From: Planctomycetota bacterium
Lineage (GTDB): Bacteria > Planctomycetota > UBA11346
NCBI GenBank assembly: GCA_031426335.1
Contig: JANPLC010000241.1
Location: 1,828 to 65,827 of the forward strand
Reading direction: 5' to 3'
Length of the DNA: 64,000 nt
The notes under the pieces were generated by a model that saw only the letters and a program-made list of their open reading frames with translations, searched no databases and was not told the origin of the DNA. The first letter of the stretch is position 1. Each line of letters starts with the position of its first letter. Below, piece after piece: positions 11,914-28,887 of the stretch. The translations under genes were made by a program, and so were the position numbers.

Positions 11914-11970
11914 GGGGTAAAATCGCGGATCCTTCTCTCGTGCCAGTTTCGATCTGGCCAGGAGCGGTGA

Positions 11971-13308
11971 ATGGCACCTCACGACGGTATCTCGATCCAG
12001 GATCGCTGGCTGGACGCTCCGGCCACGAAGGCGGCGGGCAAAGAGCGACTGAAGCCGGTCAATAATCGCTGCGCCAAAGTCAGCCGCTATTTCGTGCGCG
12101 TGTGGGATCCCAATCTTCCAGCCAAGAACCCGGGTGGGAAAATTGGTGGCTACGCTTCAAAGTGCTTCCCGACCGTGACAGCGGGTCATGCCTGGGCTGA
12201 GCATCGTCGCGGCGAATTTCTCAAAGGCACGGCATCGGCACACACGACGACCATGACCGAACTGGGCACCGCTTTCATGACGAGCCTGCGCACGCGTATC
12301 GACGGGGCGGTCACGGAGCGACATCAAGCGCAGGTCCAGCAGGTGATTGATGGTTTGGTGTCGGCTGGAGCGCGCGACATCACCGATCCGTCGTTTCCGG
12401 ACCTCGTGCAACGCTGGCTGTCGGGCCTCCAAGCCCAACGTACTTGGGAAAAGCGCCCACGCCCGGCGTCGCCAGGATTGAAACGGAAGTTCTTGGTCAT
12501 CGCTCGTGCCGTCATGGCGTACGCCCAAGAGCGGCGATTGGTGGCCTATGATCCCCTCGCCGCGATCAGAACCGGTCGGGTCGAGCAGAAGCGCAAAGCC
12601 ATCTTTGCCATCAATGAACTTTCCGCCCTGGTCAGCGATTCAGCCCGCTGGAAGAATCGTGATAAGTGGTCAGAGGCGCGGCGCATGGTCGATGCCCACC
12701 ACGGCAATCAGAAGGAAGCCGCCAAGGCCCTGGGGATATCACCCTCAACCTTGCACTACCGCCTGAATACCCCGCAGGAAGCCGATCCCTGGTGGCTCGT
12801 CGCTGTCTTGCTGACCTACACCGGGTGCCGGATCTCCGAAGTGCTGGCGATGACACCGCGCATGGTGGATCGCCAGGCTGGAGTCCTGCTGCTGCCGGCC
12901 AGCGCAACCGGCAACAAGATGAAGCGCGACCGGCGCATCCGCTTGCAACCGGAATTGATGGCGATTCTGGCAGAAGTGCTTGATGCGGGTGCGCTCGGAA
13001 AGGACGAGCCACTGGTGGGAACCCACATGGTGAAATTCACCAGCGCGAACCTCGGCAACGGATTCAAAGACTATTGCCGCCGCTGCGGCATCGAACCTGG
13101 GCCGCGCGGTCCGCATGCGCTTCGCCACACCTTCTGCGCGCTGATGACCGCACTGGGCGTCTCACCTTTCCTGGTCATGGAATTGGCGGGGCATACGTCG
13201 GCTCAAGTTACCAGATCCTACAGCCAGTCAGCCGAAGAACTCATCGACGGTGTGGCCTGCTGGCCCAGACATGAGCCAGCACAGTTCTATCTTCGTCGAG
13301 CAAAATGA
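11971..13308 (+). CDS. int: Tyrosine recombinase / phage-type integrase
   Basis: 445 aa. Catalytic signature 'TGCRISEVLAM' (Arg), 'HALRHTFCALM' (His-x-x-Arg-His), 'LAGHTSAQVTRSY' (His...Tyr). Adjacent to the att repeat. Confidence 0.9.
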   Translation: MAPHDGISIQDRWLDAPATKAAGKERLKPVNNRCAKVSRYFVRVWDPNLPAKNPGGKIGGYASKCFPTVTAGHAWAEHRRGEFLKGTASAHTTTMTELGTAFMTSLRTRIDGAVTERHQAQVQQVIDGLVSAGARDITDPSFPDLVQRWLSGLQAQRTWEKRPRPASPGLKRKFLVIARAVMAYAQERRLVAYDPLAAIRTGRVEQKRKAIFAINELSALVSDSARWKNRDKWSEARRMVDAHHGNQKEAAKALGISPSTLHYRLNTPQEADPWWLVAVLLTYTGCRISEVLAMTPRMVDRQAGVLLLPASATGNKMKRDRRIRLQPELMAILAEVLDAGALGKDEPLVGTHMVKFTSANLGNGFKDYCRRCGIEPGPRGPHALRHTFCALMTALGVSPFLVMELAGHTSAQVTRSYSQSAEELIDGVACWPRHEPAQFYLRRAK

Positions 13309-13434
13309 ACGCACCACCAGGTGCAGGTGGTTGCTCATCACCGCAAAGCCGGCCACTTTGACCGCGAACAAGCCGGCCAGGGACCGCAACCGCTCATCAA
13401 CCTCGCTCGACGGTGATCGAACCGTCAACCGCAT
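13306..13434 (-). pseudogene. Remnant of an IS200/RAYT-type (Y1/HUH) transposase
   Basis: 'LAGLFAVKVAGFAVMSNHLHLVV' matches the conserved 'yvvMpNHvHLl' block of REP-associated tyrosine transposases. Only ~40 aa remain. The fragment abuts the integrase stop and lacks N- and C-terminal parts. Confidence 0.45.
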
Positions 13435-13435
13435 A

Positions 13436-13526
13436 GGTAGTGTCCGTCAAGTTTCGCAAATTCGATCAGCGGCGTAGCCGGTCAGTGGTTAAGTGATCGA
13501 ATTTGCGAAACTTGACGGACACTACC
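13436..13526. repeat. Perfect inverted repeat (33-bp arms, 25-nt spacer); REPIN-like hairpin
   Basis: GGTAGTGTCCGTCAAGTTTCGCAAATTCGATCA (13436-13468) is the exact reverse complement of 13494-13526. It sits next to the RAYT remnant and at the left edge of the lower-GC cassette. Confidence 0.85.
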
Positions 13527-13586
13527 GGGGAATTAGTCTGAGCTAAGATCATCCATCTAATCGTAAAGTGCCAGTAAACCACGGGC

Positions 13587-13943
13587 ATGCATGTGCATAA
13601 AGAAGAATCCGTAGAGGACAACGAATATATTGTCTACGCTATTTTTCTTTGGCACGTTGCTGACCAAATCAAAAATGGAATGTCGGAAAATAATGCCATT
13701 GAGTATGTCTTGAAAACTGAGTATCCAGACATGGACGGCGCATTGATGAGTGTAGCGCTCGACCGTCATCGCCAAATAAAACATGCCCACCTTGGTGATC
13801 TTACAAGCAGCGTCGTTCTTCCCCTCTACCTCAGATACAAGGTTTCCGCGACTCAAGCAGATTGGTCGCATGGTAGCGACAATGCAAAAATAGCGTCAGA
13901 ACGCATCAAGGCAGAATTCGTACGGCAATTATCTATGCAATAA
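13587..13943 (+). CDS. Hypothetical protein (lower-GC cassette)
   Basis: 118-aa ORF with balanced composition. An overlapping minus-strand ORF (13557-13871) looks antisense-like. No recognisable motifs. Convergent with the immunity gene. Confidence 0.35.
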   Translation: MHVHKEESVEDNEYIVYAIFLWHVADQIKNGMSENNAIEYVLKTEYPDMDGALMSVALDRHRQIKHAHLGDLTSSVVLPLYLRYKVSATQADWSHGSDNAKIASERIKAEFVRQLSMQ

Positions 13944-13949
13944 TTCATC

Positions 13950-14480
13950 TCAAGCTTCCCATGGCAGAGGATAACCAAACGAAGCGATCTTCGGATCCTC
14001 ACGAAGAACATAGTCTTTATCCCCCGGCCATAGTGAATCATCATAATTCAAAGATCTCTCTAGTGCATTCTTAATAAATATGAACAGAGTCGAAGCCGCA
14101 ATATAGCATACGTTCGTTCGTCCTAGTATTCCTTCAACAAAGACGATTGGGGGATCCAATGGATTATCCCCCAATACAGCGACATAGTGATTTCCATGAC
14201 TATCACCAGCAATCGGCAAGAACGAAGCTGATCTGTATTCCGGAATCATACTTGCTATTTTTACGATCTCTTTGGCCCCCAAAAAATCACAGCCAATCAC
14301 TTCCGCTCCATCGACTTTCGTAAGCCATGACTGCAGATCAGCAGGGAACTCCATGCCGATTTCAATCGACGCTTCCTTAATTTCAATTGTCGATGCGCCG
14401 CGATATGCTATCGACCCACCAGAATACGTTCGGGATTTGGCTAGAATCTGGAGAAGAGTGTTTAAATTTGGCTTATTCAT
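13950..14480 (-). CDS. SMI1/KNR4 (SUKH-1)-type immunity protein
   Basis: 176 aa, starting 12 nt after the toxin stop with AGGA 4 nt upstream. 'IEIKEASIEIGMEFPADLQSWLTKVDGAEV' and 'FLPIAGDSHGNHYVAVLG...PPIVFVEG' fit the SUKH pattern (lP.dy..fl...nG ... ia.dg.Gn.y). Confidence 0.75.
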   Translation of the reverse strand: MNKPNLNTLLQILAKSRTYSGGSIAYRGASTIEIKEASIEIGMEFPADLQSWLTKVDGAEVIGCDFLGAKEIVKIASMIPEYRSASFLPIAGDSHGNHYVAVLGDNPLDPPIVFVEGILGRTNVCYIAASTLFIFIKNALERSLNYDDSLWPGDKDYVLREDPKIASFGYPLPWEA

Positions 14481-14492
14481 GATCCTGGCTTT

Positions 14493-17400
14493 CTATGGGA
14501 ACGCAATGAATGTCGCGGCATCTTGTGCAAATTGACCATCTATGAGCGCAGCTTGAGCCTCGACCTCAGCTTTAGTGACGTTACCGACTCCGCCTTTTAA
14601 ACGCAACCATTCCTCCCATGCTTTGGTTATCTTAGCATGGACCTCTATTTTTACAGTAAATACATTCTCAATGGCGTTCGGATTATCAGGGAACAAGTGA
14701 CTGAATTGCAACTCGATGCGATGATGAACTTCGTATCCGGCCTCTTTAAGCCCCTTTCCTCCCAGCAATTTAGTTCCCGCACGTTCTGCCCAAAGTCTTC
14801 TGGCTGCTTCGCGTACGGCATCTCGTTCGAGGGACGACAATTGGCGTCTATTTAGCTGCGCCTTCATGACGCTTACTTGCCACTTCGGAAGTTTAGTAAA
14901 CGTCTGAAAAAAACGCGTTTCTCCCATTCTACCTAAGACAGCCAAGGCTCTTCCCCATGCCTTATCGCAAAAACCACCAACGTTGTGAACCCAAATAGAT
15001 GGAGAATCTTCTTTTGAGTTCGAAGAGGCAACGAAATAGGTCTGCCAATCGGCCACGGAGAAATTGTACGTTGTGAAGCACTGCCCTATCGGGGCCTCTT
15101 CACAGCGCACCGATTCAACTACGGCACATTCATTGCCTGCCATATGCAACTGATAGCCGGGTTTCAATTCACCCATTGGAACCCAGGCACTAAGCTGCTT
15201 AACCCAGAAGGGGTGGGTGGTTGTTCCGACCAACTCAGACGCATCACCATCCATGTTCCCAACATCTAAACGATGATAACGAAGATGGATTAAAGTGGCT
15301 GGCGTGGTCATGAACGTCTGTTCAACGTGTTTGAGCCCTTCCGCACCACTTCGTTCATCACGCGACCAAACCATGTCGCCAACACGAATGTCCTCTATCG
15401 CTTTAAAACCGTTCGAAACTTTCACCCGCGTTCCCGCCACAAAGCAAATCAACTTTGTTGAAGCACGTACCAAAGTCTCCGTCGGGAGGAAGTCGCGCAC
15501 TGCTTGTCGTGCTTTTGGTAATGCTGACTCTTCAACCTTTTTAAATAAGACTTTACCTGATTTTCCGACGACACTTCCTACTTTCGCAAAGGGGACAAAG
15601 TTGACCAGTAAAAATCCACCGTTGACTCCCACCGCAGCCCAGGTGGCATCACCCTCGGGAAGCACAATCCTTTTTCCTCCACCAATGTAACCAGCCCAAG
15701 CGGTAACATCGGCCAATTGATTCATTGCTGACAAAACTTGGTTGGCGCCGTTCATCGCCGTTTGCTCATTTATCGGACGTAACTCCCATCCTATTTCCCT
15801 GGCAATTTTCATCCGCTCCTCTCGGCGAGCTTCGGCAGCAGCATGTATGTTGCCATTCGCCTTATTATAGGCATCAATTGCTGCGGGGAGATCGAAGGTT
15901 CCTTCTTTTTCGTACCTCAGGTCTCCAGCTTTCTTTCCAACAGGTATATCAGTATCACCAGATTTGTATGTGGCGTGCGGGGCAACCCACAAGTACACAG
16001 CTCGTGCCTCCGGAAGATCCCATGTGCGAATGGTCCCTCCGAATCCAACGTGAGCGATGAACGCATTTTGAACGATGCGCTCTACCCCAAGATCTACCCC
16101 TGGGATTACGACATCCTTCGTAAGCGCCGCTATGACGCTGCTGGCTAAACTCAGGGCATTGCCTTCAGGCGCACCCAACAGTTCTGGTATTGTCCACAGA
16201 GGAATGTCATCATCCAAGACGGGATTATCGAGCGCGTTCCAGACCCAACCGGTAGTTTCAGCGTTTTCACCTTGGACCAAGTACCAGGCCATGAGCTTGT
16301 TATCGAGGAATGTTTTGGGGTTGGTTCGAGCAAGTTTGACCTCTGCCGGCGTCAATGAGTCGCTCGTTACATTGCCCGCCACTTGTATTGCGCCCTGTCG
16401 CTTAAGGGTTACTTGGTAACTGCCCTGCACTGTTTTATCAAAGCCGCGTACTTCTTGCGTCGTCCAGGTATCCTCCTCATTAAGTCCAATGACGCTTGCA
16501 CTAATGCGCTGAGCGGCATCAGGAGACACAACTACAGTTACCGTATAAGTGTCGGGCACCGGAGTGGGAAGACGTGATCGCGCAATACCGATGGTAACCG
16601 AGAGATGAATAGTGTCATTGGTGCCTGAGAACGTAACCGGACCTTCGTCCTCACCTTCGCCGCCTTCGGTACCGACGGTTCCATTAACGGGTGCCCACGC
16701 TGGATCTACAAAAACCATTGCATTGCCTGTCGTTGCATCCTTCACGTAATAGCGGTCGTCCTTCTTGATAAGATCAACCCTGGAGCCGTTTTGGAACCAT
16801 TTGTGGCTCGTAATTACAGTGTCAATAATCGACGGCGCTTGTATCGATACTCGATAAGGCGTGACGGTTTCTTGCTGTGCTGGGGAGATAGCAGAAGAGA
16901 CAGACCGCAGGGAGAACGATGGCGCATCGGAAGTAATCGTAGTTGAGTATTGATATTGTGTCGAGGTCACTCCACCAATTTGAATGAAATTTGCAGTGAC
17001 CGCTTTTGATTCAGACATCTTCACCGAAGCTGGGATTGAAACACCCGTGGTAGCGCCAAGAAGATCCACTTGGATCACGGTTGAGCCAACTGTCGCGGTG
17101 AAAACCTTGGTGTCTGCACCTGTCTCGGTCAGTGCGATTGGTGTCGGACTCGGACCCGCGATGTGGTTAGGCAGTGTGATCGCGATCTGGTTAACGACTG
17201 TTGGTGAGAGCACGCCGCTAAGGTCGACTTTATAGGTCATCACTGTTGGAGCAGTAATTGCATTACTGCGAACTATAAGAGCCTCGAAACGGAGCGATGA
17301 AGGACCATTTTCCGTAAATACTTCTTCGCAATACCATTCACCATTCTTCTCGACTGTAGCCGATATGGTGTCAACGAGGATTGCGTTTGTTTGACCGCCT

Positions 17401-20400
17401 TCACTAATGGACACTCGATAAACTGCCCCGACATCCTGGAAGACATTAGAACCAACCGCTGTCTCGGTTAGCGTGACGGTTGCTGGATTCTGACCAATGT
17501 ACTGGTTAGGGATCACTAGCGTGATGGCATCCGTTTGCGTAGCCCGAAGATCGCCATTGAGTTGAATTGCGACCGTCTCTCGGATAACCGGGTTAGGATA
17601 CGTACCATTCATAGTCGCCGAGAAATTGGCACTTCCCTGAATGCCGCTTTCATTCGCATCAGTCACGACATTCATCAAGTGCTCGCCTTCCCAGGCAGGG
17701 ATCGTCACGGAACCGGAGAATGCAAAGCTCTTAGAATACGGCTTCCAGTCTGTTGGACTGCCGCTGACTGTGGATAATGCAATATCCCCCACCCACTTAT
17801 TGTGGTGATAAACATGGACCGACTTCATCGCTGGGGCTTCGAGCAAATTCGCAACCGCATCGGTAACGGTGCCAGATAGTGATACCGTGGCGTTTACACC
17901 GCTGACAGTGACGCTCGGCGATACCGAGATATTAGGCACTGACATAGTTTTGGTAATCTGAGGCGGGTTTTGATCTAACTCTGTCTCATAATTGATTTTC
18001 ACAATCGCCAGCGCCTCCTTCATCCGATGCGCGCCGTTGGCTCCGGCGAATTGTCTGCTTAATTCATCTGGATAGGCGTGCACGGCTCCAACTTTTACAT
18101 CAACGCTGTAAAGTCCCGCCGCGACGTCGGCGCCAATAAATACAGTGAATTCCAATACTTGGTAAGTTCTCATATTTGAATTTTGATCCTGCTCATCTCG
18201 GAGTCGCTGGCTCACAATGGTGACCTTATCGGAACCCGGCTTGACTCCAGGTGCCACAGAAATTGCTTGCGTAACATCCTTCTCTGAGCTTCCATTAATC
18301 TTGATGAACCGAATGTAATCTGCTGACATTCGATTAAAGTCATCAAATCCAAATTCTTTTGAGAGAAAATTCCCCCTAATGGTGAAGGCGGCCGTCATTC
18401 CTGATGCCGCTATATTTGGCGAAAGATTTATAAAGTTGAATACTGGCATGGATTGCCCTACCGAGAATCCAAGAAATGTATCCGTATCCGTCCCATACTG
18501 ATAGGGGCCAAGGCCAACAGTTGCGTAGTCGTTGCCTACTCGCCAGATCTCATAATCGTTGATGTACGATCCAATCGGAGCCAGATCGACTGATGCCGAT
18601 AACGCATCTCCATTACGGGTGACGGGGTGATTTGCGTTTCTTCCGCGATCGACGCGAAGCACTGGGAGCGCGCTCGGATCTCGCACCTGTGAAAGAGACG
18701 GGAAATTAAACTGAATTTCCTGTCGCTTCATGCCTTTTTTAAATGCCGGCTCGTAATTTAATACTGCGGGGCGATAATATCTGTCTGTTCCTGACCCCGG
18801 AGAATAGGGATAATTTTGAATGACCCCGCCATACAACATCGATGCGACATCGATCCCATTTCCCGCAAATGTGACTTGGGTTTTGAACGCCTTTGCGACG
18901 CCCAATAATGGATCGAAGGTCGCAGGATTGACCGTAATTGACGTAACTTGATGGCTATCATTATAGCCATAGTCATACCGTTGTCTTATGTCAAAAAATC
19001 CACCTGGCTCTGACAGGGAGAAAGTTTGAATGACTGACGTTCCTGTCAGCGAATTATACCCGGCCTGTTTAAATGTTGTCGTTCCATGTGCTCCCGAAGC
19101 GGGGTCCGTAAAGGTCGGCAGTCGGCTAAAATTTCCATAGCCAACATAATCTTGGGGCTGAAGGCCACGGAATTCATACTTTTTCTTGACGATATTTCCA
19201 ATCCAGTCCCTAAAGTAATAGGTATCTGTTTTGGCAATCTGATCTTTCTCCGCACCTGTGATATTAACAGGATTGTTCAACGTGAAGGACTGGCCCATTT
19301 GACCACTCGTAGGTTTACTCGGGACGCCTTGCCATGCCTCTTCTGGGTACCAGCCCATAGATAGATCGCTGGGCCAAGAGAGCCAATAGACGGGCGAGGT
19401 GTAACTATAGACGGACTCTGTTGCTGCTTCGACCGATGGATCCACCAACATCGCATCGACATAAAATAAATCCTTTACCTTCTCTGGTGGTACGGGATAA
19501 GGCTGATATGTATCCTCGAGGTAATTACCACATCTATCACTTATATTAACTGCATAGAAGGAGGTGTAACTCCTTGTGTTTAGCGAAAATGGCGTGTGAA
19601 ATCCGTTCAGCTTCCACCCAATAAATTCTCCTCCTTCGTCTACAATATTACTTTTTAGCAGAGGCGCATTATTCTTGTCAAAGACTTTGAACGACGATGA
19701 ATTTTTCAGTCCAGTTACTTCATCTGGCGCCTTGATGGTGACTGAAAAGTCCTGGGCATTGAAGCAAAGTCTTTGCCTATACTTGCGGAGATTCCCGTTC
19801 CCGGTGAACCCGAGTTCTGGGTTGGAATTGAGGAAGATGAATTTTTCTCGCTGATATGCGGATGTTTTTAAAGGTCCGTTCGAAATAACCAATGGCTCAG
19901 TGGGGCTGTCCCACAATGATTTGTCGGCGAGTATTTCGAGCTTAGGCGGCGAGCGATCTACCACGAGTCTTTCTGATAAACGGATAGTTTGCATTGCATT
20001 TTCTTGCGCTCTGGAGGCGTTGGCATATGCGACAAACTCAAAAATCCCTTCGCTAGCGAACTTGAATGACGCCGTTCCGCTAGATCCCGGTATTCTATAT
20101 TCCTGGCCATCCGATGAGCTTACGATTATTTCGGATACGACTCCTCCTCCATAAGATTGAGCTGAAGCGGTGATGAGCACCGGGGTCGAAGGATTTCCGC
20201 CTGTGTTCGTAAAGGAGAAGTTTTCGCCTTTGATTTCACCGTGCTTGTCACCAGTCAAAGAACTGTCTAAGTAGGCAATTGATAGAACTGGCGGCGCCAG
20301 AGGCGTGCCATCTGGGCTCCCCTGTTCTGTCGTTTCCGATCCGGTCGGCCAACGAAGAACAGCGATTTTCTTTGGCCCTAACACTCCGCGGGCATCCTGA

Positions 20401-23400
20401 TATTGCAGAATAATGGAGGCGGTGGTCGTACCGGCTGCTGCCAATGAAGCCCTAATGGCAAACCCGCCGTTGGTTAACGTAGACACCAGAATCAACCCAG
20501 GAGTTGTGGTAGTCGCGAGAACAGCTGTGATATCATGACCATAGGGTACGATCCCTGAAGCCTCTACGACTAACCCTTTTCCATACTGATAGGTAACTGC
20601 GGCAGCGGGCAATTCGTCGCTGTATAGTGTGATTGCGGCGACGGCGCCATCGCTGCCTAGATTAAAATTGCTGCTAGTGCCAAGAGTGACGTCAATCGAT
20701 TCGGCGGTCTCAATTTCACCATCATCGCGCGGCGTGATCGTGATTAGCGAACTGGTTTGGTTAGCCAGGATGGTGACCAATCCGGTAAGGCTGAGGTAGT
20801 CGATGCCGGGTGTGGCCGAACCTCCGACGGTATACGGCACGGTTAGTGTCGTAGTCGAGGGGGCCGACCGCGTCACGGTGAACGTGGCAGTGGTCAGTCC
20901 GGCCTCTGTTGCGACGTTGTCGGTGGCAGAGATACGCACCGTTGGCCGTTCATCGTCACCGATCGTTACGGTTGCACTGCTGTCGATTCCAGGTGTGAAT
21001 GCGCCGGTGACGAGCGTGACGATCACGGTCTTGTCGCCGTTGGCCGTGGCATTATTTACCGGGGTGATGACAAGGTCGGCCGTAACCTCGTTGGCCGCGA
21101 AGGTGATGGCACTGACGTTGGGGTTGAGGGTGTAGTCGGTGCCTAGCGTGGTGCTGGCGGTACCAGTGCGCAGGAAGGGGACGCTCAGCGTCGTGGTGGT
21201 ATCGCCCGTGCGCGTGAATCGAACCGTCCCGGTGACGGGCGTCGCGCCTTCGGCCGCATTCGGCTGGAGCGCCACCACGGTCACCGTGGGGAGGTCATTG
21301 TCAGCGATAGTCACCGTGGCGTTGGTGGTGGCACCAAGGCTGTAGCCGGCTCCTGCCACCAGGGTAACCTTCACGGTTTCGTTGACCTCGGGTAGATCGT
21401 CGTCCGTCGGCGAGATGTAGAGGTCTTTGGTGGTCACGTTGGGGCCCAGCACGATCGGCCCGGTCAGCGTGCTGTAATCGCTACCCGCGGTTGCCGTACT
21501 GCCCGTCGTGGAGATGCCGATCGAGATCGTGGTCGTGGGGTCGCCGGTACGCTGCAGGGTCAGCACACCCAGCGCGCCGCCTTCGACTGCTTGGGCAGCG
21601 GTGGCGGCGATGCTGACAACTGGCGGCTCATTGTCGCTGATGCTAATCTGGGCTTGGGCTTGACCCACCCGGTAGGTCGCCTGCGGCACCAGGGTGAGAA
21701 TCACGGTTTCCGCGACTTCCGCGCCGGAGTCGTTGACCGGCGTAATGTTGATGGGGGCCGATTCCTGTCCGGCGAGAATCGTTACCGTGATGGTGCCAGT
21801 ACCGGTGATGCTGGTTGGCGTGGCCGTGTAATCCGTCAGCGCGGTGGCCGTGCCGGCGCGGGTCAGTGTAACCGTCAACGGATTGGCCGTCGAGCCGCTG
21901 CGCGTCAGCATAAACGTACCCGTATCCGGGCCGGTTTCGCTGACCGCAGCATCGGACACTGCCAAGTCGACGATCGGGAAGTCGTCGTCATGCAGGATAA
22001 TCGCAACGCTGCTGGTGATGATGCCATAGGAGCTGGGTCCAATGGTGGCGGTGATGGTTTCGTCACCTTCCACCGTCGTGTCGTCACGGTTGGTGGTGAT
22101 CGACACGGGTGGCGCTGAGGCATTGCCGGTAGGAATAGTCAATGTGCCCGAGGGAACCGAACTGCTGTAATCCACGTCTAATGTGGCCCCCGACAGGGCG
22201 AACGCGACATTCAGCGCGGGCCCGCTAAAATCACCCGTCCTGGTAACGGTCAGCGTTACTTGCTCATTTGCATTTTCCGTGACCTCGGTGCGGGAAGCCG
22301 TGATCGTCAACGTCGCATCTTCGATCGACGTGCTGGCCGACCAGGAACCGCTGATCGCAAACGGCACCGTGGTGGACGCCTGCAGCAGGAGGATTGCGGT
22401 CTCCGTGCCTTCCACCAACGCGTCCGCCTTCGCCGCTACCGAGATGTCGACGAACGTTGCGTTGGCCGGGATGGTCGCCGTGGTAATCACTGCGGGGGTA
22501 GCGGTGAAATCTGTATTTAGCACCGCATTGCCGCTCCATTGAACTGGAATGGCGAGCGCGCTCGTCGACGTATTGTTTCGGGAAATGCGGATTTTGCCCT
22601 GATTGGCGGTGTTGGGCTCCTTCACCTCGGCGTCGGTGGCTGCGATGGTAAGGGTGCAATCCTTGATGGTGGCGGTCGCGCTGGGCGTGGCACCAATGTT
22701 GTAGGTTGGCACGCCGATCAGGGTCAGCACCACCGTTTCGTCCGCTTCGGTGATCTGGTCACCCAGTGCGGTGAGCGTCACCGTGGTGGAGGTGGCATTC
22801 GCAGCGATGGTCGCGGTGCCGGACAGGGCGGTGTAGTCGAGGCCAGGGGTCGCGGTGCCGCTGACCTGGTACGTGACCGTCAGGGCTGCGGTGGTCGCGG
22901 CTGGGCGGGTAATGGTGAAGGTGGCGTTGTCACCACCGGGTTCGACCGCCGTCGCGTCCGTGGCGCTGATCGTCAGGGTTAGAACTTCGTCATCCGTAAT
23001 GGTGACCGTGGCACTGGCGGCGGCTCCAATGGTGTAGGTCGCCGTTGGTGTGGTCGGGATGATGGTGGCGATGACCGTTTCCGGGCCTTCAACGAGTGCG
23101 TCCTGCACCGGGGTGATGGTCAGGGTAGCCGTCGCCACGCCGGCATTGAAGGTGACCGTGGTTCCGGTGGGGTTTCGCGTGTAGTCACCGCCGGCCGTGG
23201 CGGTGCCGGTGATCGCGACGGAGACGGTCAAGGCATTGGTGGTGCTGACACGCGTCAGCGTGAATACGCCATTGGTGGGTGTGGCCGCTTCGGTCGCGTT
23301 GGGCGTGGTGGCGGCAATGGTGACCACATCATCATCACGAATGGTCAGAGTGGCGACGCTGGGGGTGCCGACGGTGTATCCGGTACCGGCAATCACGGTC

Positions 23401-26400
23401 ACTACGATGGTCTCATCCACTTCGTGGAGGGAATCCTGCTTGGCCACGACCGCCCGCGTCACGGATGCGACGCCAATCGGGAAGGTGATCTTGGTGCCCG
23501 TGTCGGTCGGGTCGGCGTAGTCGGTGTCCACGGTCGCCGTCGAGCCGGTCAGGCTGAGATTCGCCGTCAGGGCTGCTGCCAGCGAGCCGGTCCGGGTGAA
23601 GGTGACGGCGCCATAGTGCGTGCCGTCTTCGGTGACCACTGGGTCGGTGGCCGCCACCTGCACGGTGATGGCGTCGTTGTCAGTGATGGTGACGGTGTGG
23701 ACTTTGATGGTGTCCAGGGCGCCGTTCACCGGTGCACTCAACGTGATGATGGCGGTCTCATTGGCTTCCACCGTGGCGTCATCGCGCACCTGCAGGGACA
23801 GGATCTTGCTGGTCTCGCCTGGGGCGAAGATCAGGGTGCCGTTTGGCAGGTAATAGTCGTCACCATTGCCGGTGGCGGTGCCGGTCAGGGCGTAATTGAC
23901 CGTCGTGGTCAGCGAGTAGGGGAACGACAACACGACCGGGATATCGATCTGGGTTCCGGATTCGCCGACTGATGAGGACGCGGCCTGGAAGGCGATCAGC
24001 GGGGCATCGTTGTCCTTGATGGATACGGTGGCTGCTGCTGGGGTTCCCACCACATAGCCAGTGCCGGAGGCCACCGTCAGCGTGACGGTCTCGTCCGGTT
24101 CGGAGAGCGTATTGTCGACGGCAGTCAACGTCACCGTGGTGCTCATCTGGCCTGCAGCCAGATTCACGGTCGCCGGCAGTGCCGTGAAGTCGGAGCCCAC
24201 CGTTGCCGTGCTGGTGGTCGTCAGGTTGATCGTCAGCGCCGGGGACGTGACACCGGCCGTGCGGATGATGGTGAACAGACCGGTGTCGGGACTGCCTGGC
24301 TCTGACGCGATCGCATCTGTGGCGGCGATCGAGATGCCTTGTTCGTCATCCAGGATGGTGACGGTCGCGGCGTTGGGGCTTCCGACCGTGTAGCCGCTGC
24401 CCGTGGCGATGGTCAGAGTCACCGTCTTGCTGGCTTCCAGCAACGTGTCGTTGATCGGGGTTACGGGGACCGTGGTCGTGGACTGACCGGTAGCGAAGGT
24501 CGCCGTGGCCGGCAGAGCCGTGTAGTCGGCTCCCGCACCCGCTGATCCTCCCGGCGTGACCGTGACCATCAGCGCGACGCCGTTGAAGCCGCTGCGCGTC
24601 AGGGTGAAAGTGCCGGTATTCGACGGCTCAGCTGCATTCGCATCCGTCGCCGCAATGGTGATCGTCGGGAGGTCGTTGTCGGCGATGGTCACGGTCGCGC
24701 TGGCGGTACCGATGAAATAAGCCGCATTGGCCGTGATGGTCGCAATCACCGTTTCGGAACCTTCGTAGGCAGTGTCATTGACCGGCGTGGCCGTGACCGT
24801 CGCCGAGGCGGCGCCGGCCGAGATGGTCACGGAGGTCGTGATGGCGCCATAGTCGCTCACCACCGCCGTACCGCCAAGAGTGAAGACGACTGTCAGCGGG
24901 TTGGTGGTGATGCCCGTGCGCGTGAACGTAAAGGTGCCGTTGTCGGGGCCGGTCTCCGACGCCGCCGCGTCGGTCGCGGCGACCGACACCGTCTGTTCGT
25001 CGTCGACGATCGTCACCGTCCCGGCGATGGTGCCGCCGAGGTAGTAGCCGGTGCCAGTGGTCAGCGTCACGATCACCGTCTCGTTCGGTTCGTTCAGCGC
25101 GTCGTTGACCGGTGTCAGCGTGATGGTCTTGCTCGCAGCACCCGCAGGGATCACCACCGTGGTCCCCAGTGACGTGAAGTCGCTCGCCGACGCCGTCCCG
25201 CTCACCGCCAAGTTGACGGTCAGGGCCGCCGTGGTCACACCCGTGCGCGTCACCGTCCAAGTGCCGGTATCTGGGGTGGCCGATTCCGCTGCGTTGGCAT
25301 CCGTCGCGGCGATCGTCACCGTCTGTTCATCGTCGACGATGGTGACGGTGGCAGCCGACGGTGAACCCGCCGTGTAACCGGCAGCCGTTACCACCGTGAC
25401 GATCACTGTCTCGTTGGGTTCGTTGAGCGCATCGTTGGTCGGCGTCAGGGTCAGCGTCTTGTTCACCGAACCCGCCGGGATCACCACGCTGGTCCCCAGC
25501 GACGTGAAGTCGCCCGCCGACGCTGTCCCACTCACCGCGAAGGTCACCGTCAGAGCGGCGGTCGTCGCGCCCGTGCGCGTGAAGGTGAACGTGCCAGTAT
25601 CCGGGGTGGCCGATTCCGTCGCGTTGGCATCCGTCGCCGCGATCGTCACCACCGCATCGTTGTCGGCGATGGTCACCGTCGCCGCCGACGGCGATCCGAT
25701 GGTATAGCTGCCCGTCGTCAGGGTCATGATCACCGTCTCCGACGGCTCACCCAGCGTGTCGTCCACCGGCGTCACCGTACGCGTCGCCGTCGCCGAACCG
25801 GCAGCGATCACCACCGGCACGGTCACTGACGCGTAGTCACCCGACACGGCAGTGCCGCCCAGCGTGACGTTCACCGTCAGCGCCGCAGCGGTGGTCCCCG
25901 TGCGGGTGATGGTGAACGTGCCGGTGTCCGGCCCCGTCTCCGACGCCGCAGCGTCGGTGGCGGCAATCGATACTCCCTGCTCGTCATCGATGATGGTCGC
26001 CGTGGCGTTGGCGGGGCTGCCCACGGTGTAGCCGGTGCCGGTGGCCAGGGTGACGATCACCGTTTTGTTCGGCTCGGTCAGCGTATCCTGCAGCGTAGTC
26101 ACGGTCAGCGTCTTGGTTGTCGCTCCCGCAGGGATCACCACGCTGGTACCCAGCGCAGTATAGTCGCTGCCCGTCGCGCTGCCCGTGACGGTGAAGTTCA
26201 CCGTTACCGCCGAGCTGGCGATGCCCGAACGCGTCAGTGTGAAGGTCGCGGTGTCGCCCCCCTCGGTCGCGGTTGCGTCTGTCGCCGCGATGTTGATCGA
26301 CGGTGGGCCGACCACGCTGACCACCGCCGTGCCGGTCTTGCCGCCGCCTTGGACCGTCACGTTGTGCGGACCGCCCGCCGTCGCCGATGCTGTGAACAGG

Positions 26401-28805
26401 CCACCGGAAGTGATGGTGCCGCTCGCCGCTGGGGCCACCCACGGACCAAAGGTCGGCTGACTTACCATTGCCTGGCCAAACTGGTCGTTGGCCACCGCGG
26501 TGAACTGCTGAGTTCCGCCCGTGGCTACCGACACCGGGGTCGGTGTCACCGCTACCGTGGTGATGGTCTGGTTGACGATGACCGTCACGTCGCTCGGCGC
26601 CGAGGTAGCATTGTTCGCATCCTTCGCCGTCGCGCGCAAGACGTAGGTCCCCGCCCGGGTGAAGGTCGCCGTCACGCTCTTGGCCGCGTTGGTGTTATTG
26701 GCGCTGAACGCCACCGAGGCCGGTGGCGTACCTGTCGTGGCCCAAGTATAGATCAGCCCTGGCTCTCCCGCGTCATCATCGCCGTAGGCAGTCAGCGTGG
26801 TCGTGGTACCGGTGACCGGGCTGGCACTGGATTTCGCCGCGATGCTGATGATCGGCGTGCCGTTGGTGATGGTGACCTGCGCGGTGCCGGCGGTTGGGAC
26901 GCCGGTGCCGGTGGCGGTCACCGTGTATGGGCCGCCAAGGGTCTGGCTGGCCAGGAATACGCCTGGGGCAGTAGTCGTGTAGGCGCTGCCGGCCAACACC
27001 ACCGTGCCGACGTCCTGCGTCTGCCACGGCCACTGCATCGTCGCCAGGGCGGTGGTGCCGATGAGGATTTGCACGTTGTCGAACGCCGCCGTGGTCAACG
27101 TGGTCGCATTGTGCGACGTCACGGCCAAGCCCATGTAGACCGAAGCCCCCATGGTGACCGTCTCGCTGCCGATGAAGGTCCACGTCGCCCCATCGGTGGA
27201 GACGTAACCACTGAAGAGCGATCCGCTGCGCACCAGCTTGATCCAGCGTGGCGCCGCGTGTCCGGTGAGGATGGTGTTGACGCTGGTTCCGGCAGTGGTG
27301 GTACGGCGTTGGAACAATGCGCCCGACGCGGCGGTGACGTTGACCATCGCATTGCGCGCGTCCGCGGCTAAACCATCGCGAATCATCAGGCCGGCCTTCG
27401 CCCACGCGTCGGTGTTGGTCAGACTCGTGACACGGGCAATGAGCGTCACATCGCCCGCGGGCAGCGGACGGTGCATGAAGCGAAACTGGTCGCTGGTGCC
27501 CCAGATATCCGTGCCGGAGGCCTGGACGGTATAGGTCCCGGTCGACGGGGTGTAGGTGCCCGAGCCCACTGGCGTGGTGATGTTGATATCCTGCTGCGTC
27601 CAGCCACTGGGTAGAGCACCAGCCGTGGCCGTCGCCGGGGTAATGCTGACATTGCTGAAGCGGGCTTGGGCGCGCACACCTGACTGGTGGGAGGTCACCG
27701 CCAAGCCGACGCGCACCGTGGCGGCCATGGTCACCGTGTCGGTGCCGAGCTGCGTCCAGGTGGTGCCGTCGGGGGAGGAATAACCCGTCAGCGTGTTGCC
27801 GACACGCGTCAGGCGCACCCAGTACGGCGCCGCCTGACCGGCGGTGATGACGTTGGTGCTGGTGCCGCCCACAGTGGTGCGGCGCTGGAACAACGCGCCA
27901 GCGGCGGCGGTCACGTTGGCCATGGCGTTAATCGCGTTGTCCGTCAGGCCGTCGCGCATCATCACGCCGGCCTTCGCCCACGCGTTGGTGTTTTCCAGCG
28001 ACTCAACCTTCGCGGTGATGGTGCCGTCGCCGGTCAGCTGCTGGTGTACGAATTGGAAGCCATCGTTGGTGCCCCAGATGTCGGTGCCGGAAGCTTCAAG
28101 GACATAATTGCCCTTCGGCAGGAAAGTGCCGCCGCCCGCAGTGGTCCAACTGATCGCCGGCTGGGTCGACAGCGCCGCGGCGAACTGGTCGCGTGCAGTG
28201 CCAGTGAATGCCACCAGACCGCCGCGCACCGGCGTTGCCGTCGCGGGTGTGACCACCACATCCGTGGCCGTTGCGTTCACCGTCATCGTCACTGGGTAGG
28301 TGTTGGCACTACCTTCCGCGCCAGTCGCGGTCACCGTCAGCACGTAGGTGCCGCTCAAGCTGAAGGTCGCCGTCCAGGTTTTGCGCAAATCGGGCATCGC
28401 CGCGCCGGCTACGAACGTCGCCGTACCGGGGCCGGACGTTTTCGCCCACGAGTACGTCACCGTATTTTCGCCCAGGTACCACTGCACCGGCGTCACGTAC
28501 AGCGTCGTGGTCTTCGCCGTCACGGGTGATGGCGATGCGGTCGGGGCAGCGGGGAAGTACGGCACCAACTGGCATTTGAAGCTGGCGCCAGAGGCCACTT
28601 TGAAGTTGTTCAAAAGCAGGCGGCCTGTCTTAACCGTCACTACGGCCGTGGACGCGAGCACCGTCCCGACGGTCGCTGAAGTAGTCGTATTCGCGGGACC
28701 GTAGGTGACTGTTCCGCTGACAGTAGGCGGTAGGGGGACGTCAGCCGCCTTTGCCCAAGGCCAGATCAGTGACAACACCGCCAGAAGGCAGAGACGAATA
28801 GGCAT
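14493..28805 (-). CDS. Giant secreted polymorphic toxin (Sec signal, Ig-like domains, 2 ConA/DUF1349-like lectin domains, ~17 Calx-beta repeats, ~1,700 aa unassigned, pretoxin-HINT, C-terminal nuclease-like toxin)
   Basis: Uninterrupted 14.4-kb ORF (the ORF track extends to 28859). Probable start is ATG 28805, 'MPIRLCLLAVLSLIWPWAKA', with AAGGAA upstream. Domain motifs are listed in the sub-features. Confidence 0.9.
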   Translation of the reverse strand: MPIRLCLLAVLSLIWPWAKAADVPLPPTVSGTVTYGPANTTTSATVGTVLASTAVVTVKTGRLLLNNFKVASGASFKCQLVPYFPAAPTASPSPVTAKTTTLYVTPVQWYLGENTVTYSWAKTSGPGTATFVAGAAMPDLRKTWTATFSLSGTYVLTVTATGAEGSANTYPVTMTVNATATDVVVTPATATPVRGGLVAFTGTARDQFAAALSTQPAISWTTAGGGTFLPKGNYVLEASGTDIWGTNDGFQFVHQQLTGDGTITAKVESLENTNAWAKAGVMMRDGLTDNAINAMANVTAAAGALFQRRTTVGGTSTNVITAGQAAPYWVRLTRVGNTLTGYSSPDGTTWTQLGTDTVTMAATVRVGLAVTSHQSGVRAQARFSNVSITPATATAGALPSGWTQQDINITTPVGSGTYTPSTGTYTVQASGTDIWGTSDQFRFMHRPLPAGDVTLIARVTSLTNTDAWAKAGLMIRDGLAADARNAMVNVTAASGALFQRRTTTAGTSVNTILTGHAAPRWIKLVRSGSLFSGYVSTDGATWTFIGSETVTMGASVYMGLAVTSHNATTLTTAAFDNVQILIGTTALATMQWPWQTQDVGTVVLAGSAYTTTAPGVFLASQTLGGPYTVTATGTGVPTAGTAQVTITNGTPIISIAAKSSASPVTGTTTTLTAYGDDDAGEPGLIYTWATTGTPPASVAFSANNTNAAKSVTATFTRAGTYVLRATAKDANNATSAPSDVTVIVNQTITTVAVTPTPVSVATGGTQQFTAVANDQFGQAMVSQPTFGPWVAPAASGTITSGGLFTASATAGGPHNVTVQGGGKTGTAVVSVVGPPSINIAATDATATEGGDTATFTLTRSGIASSAVTVNFTVTGSATGSDYTALGTSVVIPAGATTKTLTVTTLQDTLTEPNKTVIVTLATGTGYTVGSPANATATIIDDEQGVSIAATDAAASETGPDTGTFTITRTGTTAAALTVNVTLGGTAVSGDYASVTVPVVIAAGSATATRTVTPVDDTLGEPSETVIMTLTTGSYTIGSPSAATVTIADNDAVVTIAATDANATESATPDTGTFTFTRTGATTAALTVTFAVSGTASAGDFTSLGTSVVIPAGSVNKTLTLTPTNDALNEPNETVIVTVVTAAGYTAGSPSAATVTIVDDEQTVTIAATDANAAESATPDTGTWTVTRTGVTTAALTVNLAVSGTASASDFTSLGTTVVIPAGAASKTITLTPVNDALNEPNETVIVTLTTGTGYYLGGTIAGTVTIVDDEQTVSVAATDAAASETGPDNGTFTFTRTGITTNPLTVVFTLGGTAVVSDYGAITTSVTISAGAASATVTATPVNDTAYEGSETVIATITANAAYFIGTASATVTIADNDLPTITIAATDANAAEPSNTGTFTLTRSGFNGVALMVTVTPGGSAGAGADYTALPATATFATGQSTTTVPVTPINDTLLEASKTVTLTIATGSGYTVGSPNAATVTILDDEQGISIAATDAIASEPGSPDTGLFTIIRTAGVTSPALTINLTTTSTATVGSDFTALPATVNLAAGQMSTTVTLTAVDNTLSEPDETVTLTVASGTGYVVGTPAAATVSIKDNDAPLIAFQAASSSVGESGTQIDIPVVLSFPYSLTTTVNYALTGTATGNGDDYYLPNGTLIFAPGETSKILSLQVRDDATVEANETAIITLSAPVNGALDTIKVHTVTITDNDAITVQVAATDPVVTEDGTHYGAVTFTRTGSLAAALTANLSLTGSTATVDTDYADPTDTGTKITFPIGVASVTRAVVAKQDSLHEVDETIVVTVIAGTGYTVGTPSVATLTIRDDDVVTIAATTPNATEAATPTNGVFTLTRVSTTNALTVSVAITGTATAGGDYTRNPTGTTVTFNAGVATATLTITPVQDALVEGPETVIATIIPTTPTATYTIGAAASATVTITDDEVLTLTISATDATAVEPGGDNATFTITRPAATTAALTVTYQVSGTATPGLDYTALSGTATIAANATSTTVTLTALGDQITEADETVVLTLIGVPTYNIGATPSATATIKDCTLTIAATDAEVKEPNTANQGKIRISRNNTSTSALAIPVQWSGNAVLNTDFTATPAVITTATIPANATFVDISVAAKADALVEGTETAILLLQASTTVPFAISGSWSASTSIEDATLTITASRTEVTENANEQVTLTVTRTGDFSGPALNVAFALSGATLDVDYSSSVPSGTLTIPTGNASAPPVSITTNRDDTTVEGDETITATIGPSSYGIITSSVAIILHDDDFPIVDLAVSDAAVSETGPDTGTFMLTRSGSTANPLTVTLTRAGTATALTDYTATPTSITGTGTITVTILAGQESAPINITPVNDSGAEVAETVILTLVPQATYRVGQAQAQISISDNEPPVVSIAATAAQAVEGGALGVLTLQRTGDPTTTISIGISTTGSTATAGSDYSTLTGPIVLGPNVTTKDLYISPTDDDLPEVNETVKVTLVAGAGYSLGATTNATVTIADNDLPTVTVVALQPNAAEGATPVTGTVRFTRTGDTTTTLSVPFLRTGTASTTLGTDYTLNPNVSAITFAANEVTADLVITPVNNATANGDKTVIVTLVTGAFTPGIDSSATVTIGDDERPTVRISATDNVATEAGLTTATFTVTRSAPSTTTLTVPYTVGGSATPGIDYLSLTGLVTILANQTSSLITITPRDDGEIETAESIDVTLGTSSNFNLGSDGAVAAITLYSDELPAAAVTYQYGKGLVVEASGIVPYGHDITAVLATTTTPGLILVSTLTNGGFAIRASLAAAGTTTASIILQYQDARGVLGPKKIAVLRWPTGSETTEQGSPDGTPLAPPVLSIAYLDSSLTGDKHGEIKGENFSFTNTGGNPSTPVLITASAQSYGGGVVSEIIVSSSDGQEYRIPGSSGTASFKFASEGIFEFVAYANASRAQENAMQTIRLSERLVVDRSPPKLEILADKSLWDSPTEPLVISNGPLKTSAYQREKFIFLNSNPELGFTGNGNLRKYRQRLCFNAQDFSVTIKAPDEVTGLKNSSSFKVFDKNNAPLLKSNIVDEGGEFIGWKLNGFHTPFSLNTRSYTSFYAVNISDRCGNYLEDTYQPYPVPPEKVKDLFYVDAMLVDPSVEAATESVYSYTSPVYWLSWPSDLSMGWYPEEAWQGVPSKPTSGQMGQSFTLNNPVNITGAEKDQIAKTDTYYFRDWIGNIVKKKYEFRGLQPQDYVGYGNFSRLPTFTDPASGAHGTTTFKQAGYNSLTGTSVIQTFSLSEPGGFFDIRQRYDYGYNDSHQVTSITVNPATFDPLLGVAKAFKTQVTFAGNGIDVASMLYGGVIQNYPYSPGSGTDRYYRPAVLNYEPAFKKGMKRQEIQFNFPSLSQVRDPSALPVLRVDRGRNANHPVTRNGDALSASVDLAPIGSYINDYEIWRVGNDYATVGLGPYQYGTDTDTFLGFSVGQSMPVFNFINLSPNIAASGMTAAFTIRGNFLSKEFGFDDFNRMSADYIRFIKINGSSEKDVTQAISVAPGVKPGSDKVTIVSQRLRDEQDQNSNMRTYQVLEFTVFIGADVAAGLYSVDVKVGAVHAYPDELSRQFAGANGAHRMKEALAIVKINYETELDQNPPQITKTMSVPNISVSPSVTVSGVNATVSLSGTVTDAVANLLEAPAMKSVHVYHHNKWVGDIALSTVSGSPTDWKPYSKSFAFSGSVTIPAWEGEHLMNVVTDANESGIQGSANFSATMNGTYPNPVIRETVAIQLNGDLRATQTDAITLVIPNQYIGQNPATVTLTETAVGSNVFQDVGAVYRVSISEGGQTNAILVDTISATVEKNGEWYCEEVFTENGPSSLRFEALIVRSNAITAPTVMTYKVDLSGVLSPTVVNQIAITLPNHIAGPSPTPIALTETGADTKVFTATVGSTVIQVDLLGATTGVSIPASVKMSESKAVTANFIQIGGVTSTQYQYSTTITSDAPSFSLRSVSSAISPAQQETVTPYRVSIQAPSIIDTVITSHKWFQNGSRVDLIKKDDRYYVKDATTGNAMVFVDPAWAPVNGTVGTEGGEGEDEGPVTFSGTNDTIHLSVTIGIARSRLPTPVPDTYTVTVVVSPDAAQRISASVIGLNEEDTWTTQEVRGFDKTVQGSYQVTLKRQGAIQVAGNVTSDSLTPAEVKLARTNPKTFLDNKLMAWYLVQGENAETTGWVWNALDNPVLDDDIPLWTIPELLGAPEGNALSLASSVIAALTKDVVIPGVDLGVERIVQNAFIAHVGFGGTIRTWDLPEARAVYLWVAPHATYKSGDTDIPVGKKAGDLRYEKEGTFDLPAAIDAYNKANGNIHAAAEARREERMKIAREIGWELRPINEQTAMNGANQVLSAMNQLADVTAWAGYIGGGKRIVLPEGDATWAAVGVNGGFLLVNFVPFAKVGSVVGKSGKVLFKKVEESALPKARQAVRDFLPTETLVRASTKLICFVAGTRVKVSNGFKAIEDIRVGDMVWSRDERSGAEGLKHVEQTFMTTPATLIHLRYHRLDVGNMDGDASELVGTTTHPFWVKQLSAWVPMGELKPGYQLHMAGNECAVVESVRCEEAPIGQCFTTYNFSVADWQTYFVASSNSKEDSPSIWVHNVGGFCDKAWGRALAVLGRMGETRFFQTFTKLPKWQVSVMKAQLNRRQLSSLERDAVREAARRLWAERAGTKLLGGKGLKEAGYEVHHRIELQFSHLFPDNPNAIENVFTVKIEVHAKITKAWEEWLRLKGGVGNVTKAEVEAQAALIDGQFAQDAATFIAFP
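14496..14981 (-). other. C-terminal toxin domain, HNH/EndoVII-superfamily-like (xHH-type) nuclease candidate
   Basis: The last 162 aa after the HINT 'VHN'. 'GYEVHHRIELQFSHLFPDNPNAIENVFTVKIEVHAKIT' shows an HH...N...H spacing like the AHH/GHH/SHH toxin families. Family assignment is tentative. Confidence 0.5.
14982..15446 (-). other. Pretoxin HINT (PT-HINT / bacterial intein-like) domain
   Basis: 'CFVAGTRVKVSNGFKAIEDIRVGDMVWSRD...LVGTTTHPFWV...WVPMGELKPGYQL...TTYNFSVADWQTYFVAS...IWVHN'. It has the N-terminal Cys, a TxxH block and a terminal HN. Confidence 0.85.
20640..26300 (-). repeat. Coding tandem array of ~17 Calx-beta repeats (~333-345 bp units)
   Basis: Recurrent '...(I/V)AATDA.A.E....G.FT.TRTG....LTV...(V/L)(S/G)GTA..G.DY......V.I.AG....T.T.TP..D...E..ETV...L'. 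Adjacent units at 25051-25377 and 25396-25707 are near-identical. Confidence 0.8.
27060..28120 (-). other. Two tandem ConA-like/DUF1349-like lectin domains
   Basis: Duplicated 'Y.(L/V).ASGTDIWGT.D.F.F.H..L.GD....A.V.SL.NT.AWAKAG.M.RDGL....NAM.NVTAA.GALFQRRTT.....N......AP.W..L.R.G....GY.S.DG..W'. Confidence 0.55.
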
Positions 28806-28887
28806 GATAAGCGTTTCCTTCGAATAACAGGCAAGAAACATCGCATTGCCAAGTGACAACGGTCAAGTTGCCACCCAACTGATCACC

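Follow-up and report, generated by a model that had tools for sequence, protein, structure and literature searches.

Polymorphic toxins of bacteria in which a C-terminal nuclease domain is preceded by a pretoxin HINT (PT-HINT) domain and followed by a SUKH immunity gene were catalogued as a type in 2011–2012 (PMC3113570, PMC3482391), and SUKH proteins are documented immunity partners of toxins with the HNH fold (PMC3113570; PMC3482391, Table 3). The closest of these, with an HNH/EndoVII fold—Tox-LHH, Tox-SHH, Tox-WHH, Tox-GHH, Tox-HHH and Tox-ColE7—have in common a C-terminal xHH…N…H pattern after a PT-HINT or RHS region, a SUKH gene immediately downstream, assignment to the Sec-only ('T2SS', type II secretion system) export class, and a presence in Planctomycetes, Verrucomicrobia and many other phyla. 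The locus described here shares these features, export of the Sec-only class being predicted from its translation. It lies within 64,000 nucleotides (nt) of contig JANPLC010000241.1 (positions 1,828 to 65,827; assembly GCA_031426335.1, Planctomycetota bacterium), a stretch that we refer to throughout as 'the window', and consists of a giant gene, whose product ends in a PT-HINT domain and a 162-residue 'tip', and a small SUKH gene directly behind it. The type of system being already known, the locus leaves our understanding of polymorphic toxins unchanged. What it adds is a widespread toxin domain not covered by Pfam, NCBIfam or the PDB, whose members are annotated as 'hypothetical' or 'RHS-associated', and which should be easy to curate and to test.

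It is likely, in our judgement, that the locus is a polymorphic toxin-immunity system in which the tip is a metal-dependent deoxyribonuclease (DNase) of the HNH superfamily and the SUKH protein is its antidote. The observations that carry this reading are direct ones: the identities of the domains, the conservation of the tip family, its modular position at the C-terminus of otherwise unrelated proteins, and its synteny with SUKH genes. The elements concerned are as follows (window coordinates; aa, amino acids).

14493..28859, minus strand: giant polymorphic-toxin open reading frame (ORF), 4788 aa counted from the first possible start, a TTG
14982..15446, minus strand: PT-HINT autoprocessing domain, aa 4472-4626 (Pfam PF07591)
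14496..14981, minus strand: C-terminal toxin domain (the tip), 162 aa, aa 4627-4788, of an uncurated family
14616..14735, minus strand: putative His-Me finger core, YEVHHRIELQFSHLFPDNPNAIENVFTVKIEVHAKITKAW, from alignments, AlphaFold2 (AF2) strands and the register with colicin E9
14481..14492, minus strand: spacer of exactly 12 nt (aaagccaggatc) between the toxin stop codon TAG (14495-14493) and the immunity ATG (14480)
13950..14480, minus strand: SUKH-1 (SMI1/KNR4) immunity gene, 176 aa (Pfam PF09346)

Proposed release and immunity

An initial annotation, made from the DNA letters and their translations, had read the last ~317 aa of the giant ORF as a pretoxin HINT domain followed by a 162-aa toxin, and in this it was accurate to the nucleotide. 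The CFVAGT motif begins at Cys4472, window position 15446, from which 317 aa remain to the C-terminus, 162 of them past the VHN, and PF07591 matches aa 4479-4626 with 80.8 bits (E 1.5e-22; cut-off 27.7). The catalytic set is complete: C4472, T4548…H4550 within TTHPFW (aa 4547-4552), and H4625-N4626 at the end of WVHN. Because the +1 residue after Asn4626 is Val, a non-nucleophile, cleavage is to be expected from this domain, rather than splicing. Going by HINT and intein chemistry, and by Zhang et al. (2012; PMC3482391), who proposed the same releasing role for C-terminal HINT domains, cyclisation of Asn4626 most likely cuts the chain and frees the last 162 residues.

The gene that follows had been called SUKH, 12 nt downstream and with its own ribosome-binding site. 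Spacing and family both hold: PF09346 matches the 176-aa protein with 32.5 bits (E 1.5e-7; cut-off 25.4), and matches to SUKH_6 and SUKH_5 fall below their thresholds. The ribosome-binding site is a weak claim, because the AGGA in question sits merely 2 nt ahead of the ATG. The protein has no signal peptide, and carries a C-terminal subfamily motif, ..DPKIASFGYPLPWEA.

That toxin and SUKH protein belong together is best seen from their relatives. Downstream ORFs were taken from 37 genome loci of the tip family and from three metagenomic loci. A conserved partner ORF begins no more than ~40 nt from the toxin stop in 33 of 39 related loci, and SMI1_KNR4 is matched in Pfam by 26 of 38 downstream partner proteins, that of the window included. 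By jackhmmer, a single SUKH subfamily, with the motif WPxD..V...DPxI......LPWE found in the window protein, accompanies the toxin at 24 of the 39 loci, in Planctomycetota, Actinomycetes, Gammaproteobacteria, Chloroflexota, Verrucomicrobiota and others. That this synteny persists across phyla argues strongly for a cognate pair and, together with the placement of the tip behind at least five kinds of module (below), bears out the toxin/immunity logic first proposed for the locus. In the closest full-length relative (P0002, 4,296 aa, on JGI contig L004), the SUKH gene encodes 187 aa and overlaps the toxin stop by 4 nt; between its product and the immunity protein of the window, identity is 26% (E 6e-18). 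Neither a second or orphan toxin tip nor an additional SUKH gene occurs in the window. In the producer cell, the SUKH-1 protein would remain in the cytoplasm, there to bind the toxin and block it.

A second partner family, of ~215 residues and with no Pfam match, occupies the same position at nine of the 39 loci, eight of them from Myxococcota and one metagenome-assembled (L020, L025, L028, L030, L031, L032, L034, L039 and, from the metagenome, L002). It is a candidate new immunity family; at the remaining six loci the partner family was not assigned. Proteins of the ~215-residue family share the motif ..LPGLDRLMEVYRKHGLP.., and the toxin domains with which they occur carry a C-terminal extension of ~36 residues.

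The toxin tip and its probable relation to HNH nucleases

By itself, the tip has no match in Pfam, in NCBIfam (noise only) or in the PDB sequence set. Profile searches had been proposed for both proteins of the pair: they place the 176-aa protein in SUKH-1, as anticipated, and put the 162-aa tip in no Pfam family above cut-off. A word-indexed search of 5.8 billion proteins with the tip as query returned a single fragment, P0001, 83% identical, and the same search with the family alignment as query returned only six proteins. When HMMER was run exhaustively on 1.84 billion cluster representatives (clusters at 50% identity), it returned 154 proteins at E<=1e-3, 20 of them at E<=1e-10, and because the profile recovers so many, the family is not a product of chance. 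The 150 representatives listed range in length from 69 to 4,296 aa, and in about two-thirds of them no more than 11 residues follow the match before the C-terminus; in all of them no more than 56 do.

The conserved core of the family comprises tip residues ~45-153. Two independent alignments, A2 (40 sequences including the window) and A4 (75 other full-length members), agree on the residues that matter. H87, N102, N106 and H115 (H4713, N4728, N4732 and H4741 in the giant protein) are invariant in both; W122 (W4748) does not vary in A2 and is conserved to at least 90% in A4; and L48, R57, H86 (H4712), L91, H95 (H4721) and L107 are nearly invariant in each of the two. The family consensus reads hVHHRIPLEW[AS]HLFPxxDPNRxxNLxGVxxxxHxxIxxAW. 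The family has a signature of its own, HHR[IV]PLE[WY][AS]H-x6-PN-x3-NL-x8-H-x6-W, and also a helical lead-in of ~45 residues and a C-terminal helix. The window tip retains all of the invariant residues, and the EVHHRIE, NPNAIEN and EVHAKIT motifs that first drew attention to it can all be read at aa 4709-4748. Together with P0001 and P0003, it falls into a small sub-clade in which IELQF replaces the IPLEW of the consensus.

The toxin domain is modular: as a C-terminal domain it follows at least five unrelated kinds of module for delivery or processing. Among the 75 full-length members of A4, Pfam finds PT-HINT in seven, RHS repeats in five, eCIS_core in three, PT-TG in three, and SpvB/TcdB and Laminin_G in one each. 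Searched as a profile against the PDB, this alignment matched the RHS cores of Tc, Rhs and teneurin proteins, and so many more members must be RHS toxins than the five that Pfam detects. The family is spread over at least eight phyla. A scan of one genome per species (185,579 species genomes) found 37 loci, in Planctomycetota (Gemmataceae, Isosphaeraceae, Pirellulales, Phycisphaerae and Planctomycetaceae) and in Myxococcota, Actinomycetes, Gammaproteobacteria, Chloroflexota, Verrucomicrobiota, Bacteroidota, SAR324 and others; the nearest relatives of the window tip are from Planctomycetota. Members go by unspecific names in public records: 'RHS repeat-associated core domain-containing protein', 'hypothetical protein' or, from Prokka, 'WapA precursor'. 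Among genomes, the full tip has its closest relative, 42% identical over residues 1-151, in a Planctomycetaceae metagenome-assembled genome (L036, 5059-7017); the toxin frame of this relative is broken within the domain and its SUKH gene is intact, so that it may be a pseudogene or contain a sequencing error.

Modeled from A2, the tip folds with confidence (AF2, predicted local distance difference test [pLDDT] 91.1, predicted template-modeling score [pTM] 0.85); modeled from its single sequence it does not (pLDDT 46), and that model is not usable. Three helices (residues 6-27, 33-43 and 50-67) lead to a strand (83-87) and a short helix (91-96), which are followed by a second strand (107-111) and two further helices (112-129 and 137-151). 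H86 and H87 close strand 1, N106 comes just before strand 2, and H115 stands at the start of the helix that follows. In the model, then, the layout is that of a His-Me (HNH) finger, a beta-beta-alpha unit within a helical scaffold.

Sequence comparisons point the same way, each of them faintly. Searched against the PDB, the A2 profile has as its best match the DNase of pyocin AP41 (E 0.034), and next two Cas8f-HNH fusions (E 0.67), all aligned on HH..N..H. Pfam HNH_3 appears below threshold in five of the 40 members (best E 1.8e-4), and HNH_2 in five of the 40. When A2 was compared by hhalign with eight annotated DNase domains from plasmid records (colicin E9, klebicin B, S-type pyocins and type VII secretion system [T7SS] DNases), the result was P 0.002, with a probability of only 14%; H86/H87 of the tip were paired with H102/H103 of colicin E9, N106 with N118, and H115 with H127. 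Foldseek of the AF2 model against BFVD placed a phage HNHc protein first, not significantly (E 1.7, template-modeling score 0.49 on the target).

Models made for known toxin families behave differently. For the tip and its 39 relatives, none of the Pfam models AHH, LHH, WHH, SHH, GHH and GHH2, nor those for HHH, EHHH, GH-E and Colicin-DNase, gives a match at E<=1. Since the hits are weak but all HNH, and no toxin-specific HNH model is among them, the tip probably belongs to the HNH superfamily and lies outside every named family. The HNH/EndoVII reading of the initial annotation thus survives at the level of the superfamily, by virtue of the invariant HH..N..H, the beta-beta-alpha arrangement and the weak HNH matches, and is not supported at the level of the AHH, GHH and SHH families. 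Unlike the catalogued toxins that it otherwise resembles, the tip has a signature and helices of its own; the nearest published pattern is that of Tox-LHH, 'N, LHH, E, H, H, W' (PMC3482391, Table 2), to be set beside the [VI]HH..E..H..H..W found here. As far as the sequence can tell us, a metal-dependent DNase of an uncurated HNH-superfamily family is the likeliest identity of the toxin.

Several observations weigh against this. Foldseek of the AF2 model finds no significant neighbor in the PDB (best E 3). No single link to HNH proteins is significant at database scale (HMMER E 0.03 or worse). The second helix histidine of colicin-type DNases, H131 in colicin E9, has no counterpart, the family having T, N or S instead. 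The window tip departs from its own consensus at two well-conserved positions, the IELQF for IPLEW already mentioned and V for L at position 107. And the window shows no dedicated secretion or translocation machinery.

The first two of these—a confident model with no PDB neighbor, and sequence links that are every one sub-threshold—would also be expected if the pair were a true toxin and immunity protein of which the tip is not HNH at all, but a ribonuclease, some other His-dependent hydrolase or a non-catalytic binder, its HH..N..H having arisen by convergence. The SUKH gene would be no obstacle, for SUKH proteins pair with non-HNH toxins as well, namely deaminases, restriction endonucleases and EndoU (PMC3482391, Table 3). 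We regard this as improbable, however: the weak matches come from four independent methods, are all to HNH proteins and align the same invariant residues, and it is around those residues that the beta-beta-alpha unit is predicted.

If the tip is an HNH nuclease, the register with colicin E9 suggests how it might work. H4713, at the end of strand 1, would be the general base; H4712 and H4741 would be the metal ligands; N4732 would brace the hairpin; and N4728 and H4721, between the strands, would replace the contact that colicins make with their second helix histidine. The DNases of colicins E9 and E7, klebicin B and the S-type and AP41 pyocins (PDB 4uhp and related) are the best PDB profile match to the family, with HH, N and the first helix histidine all in register, and they offer a parallel in function too, as bacteriocidal DNases with a co-encoded immunity protein. 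The differences are considerable. H131 of the HxxxH motif in colicin E9 is absent from the tip, and the scaffolds differ, with no Foldseek match between them; the inter-strand loop of the tip is 4–5 residues longer than that of colicins, and contains N102, which is invariant, and H95, which is nearly so; immunity is by a SUKH protein, rather than an Im-type four-helix protein; and delivery is by a giant Calx-beta protein, whereas colicins use receptor-binding and translocation domains.

Membership of two described families was considered and rejected. Tox-ColE7 does not fit because the second helix histidine is missing, there is no match to Pfam Colicin-DNase, and the core alone aligns. Tox-REHH (Rehh/STox_30, bioRxiv 10.64898/2026.09.22.753552) does not fit because its R46, H52, E53, H102 and H121 do not correspond to H86, H87, N102, N106 and H115 of the tip, the two being compared by published residues and their spacing. 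Tox-REHH is instructive as a parallel, nonetheless: it is a polymorphic-toxin DNase with an HNH core buried in a scaffold for which no global structural neighbor exists, and it occurs with many delivery systems and with several immunity families, SUKH among them. The confident model of the tip suggests another such HNH core hidden in a remodeled scaffold.

The carrier protein and a block of low GC content

The giant ORF probably starts, not at the TTG, but at an ATG at 28805 (M19), ahead of a putative Sec-type signal peptide. The leader reads MPIRLCLLAVLSLIWPWAKA/AD, with n-, h- and c-regions and AKA/AD at the likely cut, recognized by eye from the translation. Pfam finds no type V, type VI or type VII secretion system marker (T5SS, T6SS, T7SS). 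Ahead of the HINT domain, the protein is organized as follows.

aa ~250-850, minus strand: two DUF1349 and PKD domains (Pfam), N-terminal of the Calx-beta array
20613..26309, minus strand: 17 Calx-beta repeats, aa 851-2749 (Pfam E 2e-93; repeats counted by jackhmmer)
15447..20612, minus strand: region of 1,722 residues, fold not recognized, aa 2750-4471, between the Calx-beta array and HINT

The region aa 2750-4471 has no Pfam match at E<=1 and no match in the PDB sequence set, and is 30–39% identical to the same region of P0002. From Calx-beta onward, the order in P0002 is the same: after Laminin_G and PKD come Calx-beta, a region of no recognized kind, PT-HINT and tip, and then the SUKH gene.

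We infer the secretion route, the cleavage, the nuclease chemistry and the target from this architecture and from the comparisons above. The giant protein would be exported through its Sec signal peptide, and displayed or released as a long stalk composed of two DUF1349 lectin-like domains, PKD, the 17 Calx-beta repeats and the region of ~1,700 residues, which may mediate contact with the target or translocation. The PT-HINT domain would then set the toxin free.

Directly upstream of the giant gene are two paralogous genes for secreted, glycine-rich proteins (28888-30126 and 30149-31150, minus strand). Their signal peptides are near-identical (MK[RK]I[IL]ISLLAIGAL..), one of them has a Gly_rich_2 domain, and their GC contents, 0.55–0.56, are also below those of the surroundings.

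The base composition of the giant gene changes abruptly. Its GC content at third codon positions (GC3) is 0.75–0.90 up to residue ~2,700, and 0.43–0.59 from there to the end; that of the immunity gene is 0.40, and an overall GC content of 0.44–0.49 continues through a small ORF beyond it to an inverted repeat. The switch takes place within the last Calx-beta repeat (window ~20,650-20,760), over about 50 codons. The features of this part of the window are these.

13400..20760: low-GC block, GC3 ~0.48 compared with ~0.8 in the remainder of the gene; contains ~2,050 codons at the end of the toxin gene (its 3' 6 kb), the immunity gene and ORF118
13587-13943, plus strand: ORF118, 118 codons, low GC, convergent with the immunity gene; also called on Logan contig L042
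13436-13468 / 13494-13526: perfect inverted repeat, arms of 33 nt and a loop of 25 nt; it borders the low-GC block and separates the integrase stop from ORF118

ORF118 has no match in Pfam or NCBIfam, and none of the loci fetched contains a relative. The inverted repeat might serve as a terminator or a recombination site, or represent an element resembling a miniature inverted-repeat transposable element (MITE).

The block is either a cassette of ~7.3 kb, grafted onto the gene by recombination within the repeat, or one side of a chimeric contig. In the latter event the high-GC Calx-beta stalk would have been joined, inside a repeat, to the low-GC toxin module of another organism that was present in the sample; the toxin-immunity module would itself be genuine, and the N-terminal 2,700 residues and the prophage context would be foreign to it. 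The abruptness of the fall in GC3 is what one would see at such a join. The independent Logan assembly of SRR20217183, moreover, reproduces 13498-16522 and, separately, the integrase contig, and its contigs stop short of the 20.7-kb junction, which is thus left uncrossed; and an exact look-up of the giant protein from two ATG starts found no record of it elsewhere. Other observations suit a genuine join better. The reading frame and the phase of the repeats are continuous over the junction, and within the window there is no exact repeat of 24 nt or more at it. P0002, from another metagenome, has the same architecture; its homology to the giant protein also starts in the last Calx-beta repeat, and contig L004 shows a milder dip in GC over the same part. 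The low-GC block, too, extends as far as the inverted repeat beside the integrase, and it is within the two arms of this repeat that Logan contigs L042 and L052 terminate, as they should, since a real hairpin would produce such ends. On balance we think a chimera unlikely. If the assembly is right, a multi-kilobase cassette of foreign composition has been grafted onto a repeat stalk beside a prophage, and this bears on how toxin arsenals spread in Planctomycetota-like bacteria.

Genomic neighbourhood

The locus was first taken to lie on a mobile island, and its surroundings agree with this: a tyrosine integrase stands on one side of it, and a lambda-like prophage on the other.

11971..13308, plus strand: tyrosine integrase with a Fis-type helix-turn-helix (Pfam Phage_integrase E 4e-16), the low-coordinate boundary of the locus
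32568-34010, minus strand: VapE-like/DUF5906 primase, between the tail genes and the toxin
35368-58311: lambda-like prophage morphogenesis module, on the high-coordinate side beyond the primase; gpJ-like tail protein, beta-helix fibre, tape measure, HK97 gp10, S49 protease, portal and terminase

A related phage is on record. IMG/VR contig L051 (UViG_3300043409_001777, 1-12871) is 87–89% identical in DNA sequence over window positions 46114-40507 and 39045-35368, and 75% identical over 48295-46408. The similarity ends just past gpJ, where L051 has a serine-recombinase-like gene in place of the 22-kb cargo; the interval from 12 to 35 kb is therefore either variable cargo of the prophage or a second, adjoining integrative element. 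The VapE-like primase and the tyrosine integrase could be the marks of a separate satellite or island element that carries the toxin. No att-like (attachment-site) direct repeats of 24 nt or more were found flanking the island.

This setting, between prophage tail genes and an integrase, in a region that a related phage lacks in its entirety, raises the thought that the giant protein serves the phage or island: it might be an adhesin or a fibre-like factor of lysogenic conversion, and the pair an addiction or exclusion module by which the element is stabilised. The wider distribution of the family speaks otherwise, and we consider this very unlikely. In tblastn searches with a consensus-like member, the toxin family was found in 0 of 72,556 plasmids and 0 of 2.9 million IMG/VR contigs, and with one weak match among 50,697 phage genomes; its relatives are typically part of chromosomal RHS, HINT, eCIS or Tc delivery proteins; and a signal peptide combined with release by HINT suggests a toxin for export. 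The toxins of temperate phages of the MuF type, a delivery class in PMC3482391, are alike in being toxin-immunity pairs in a prophage region. They differ in that the toxin here is carried on a Calx-beta giant with a Sec signal, with no fusion to a MuF head-morphogenesis domain, and belongs to a family absent from IMG/VR.

Taking the exported toxin as the preferred reading, one can combine the several parts in a single scheme, which we put forward tentatively, as possible and short of an even chance. The tip would represent a distinct, unnamed HNH family that has a scaffold of its own and a SUKH subfamily (..DPxI..LPWE) dedicated to it. In this lineage it would have been exchanged, not singly, but as part of a cassette of ~7 kb—last Calx-beta repeat, 1,700-residue region, HINT, toxin and immunity gene—that recombined onto a resident Calx-beta stalk in the cargo of a temperate phage or island. 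Were that so, such a phage could re-arm its host with a giant competition toxin.

Beyond the integrase, the window contains genes for extracytoplasmic function (ECF) sigma factors accompanied by FecR-DUF1080 and FecR-GH5 fusions (398-2449 and 9210-11278). With these neighbors, and with Planctomycetota as the source of the nearest tip relatives, the PVC-like genome suggested by the initial annotation is plausible. This pattern of ECF sigma, FecR and DUF1080 is common in Planctomycetota and Verrucomicrobiota, and is the only direct hint of host lineage that we find.

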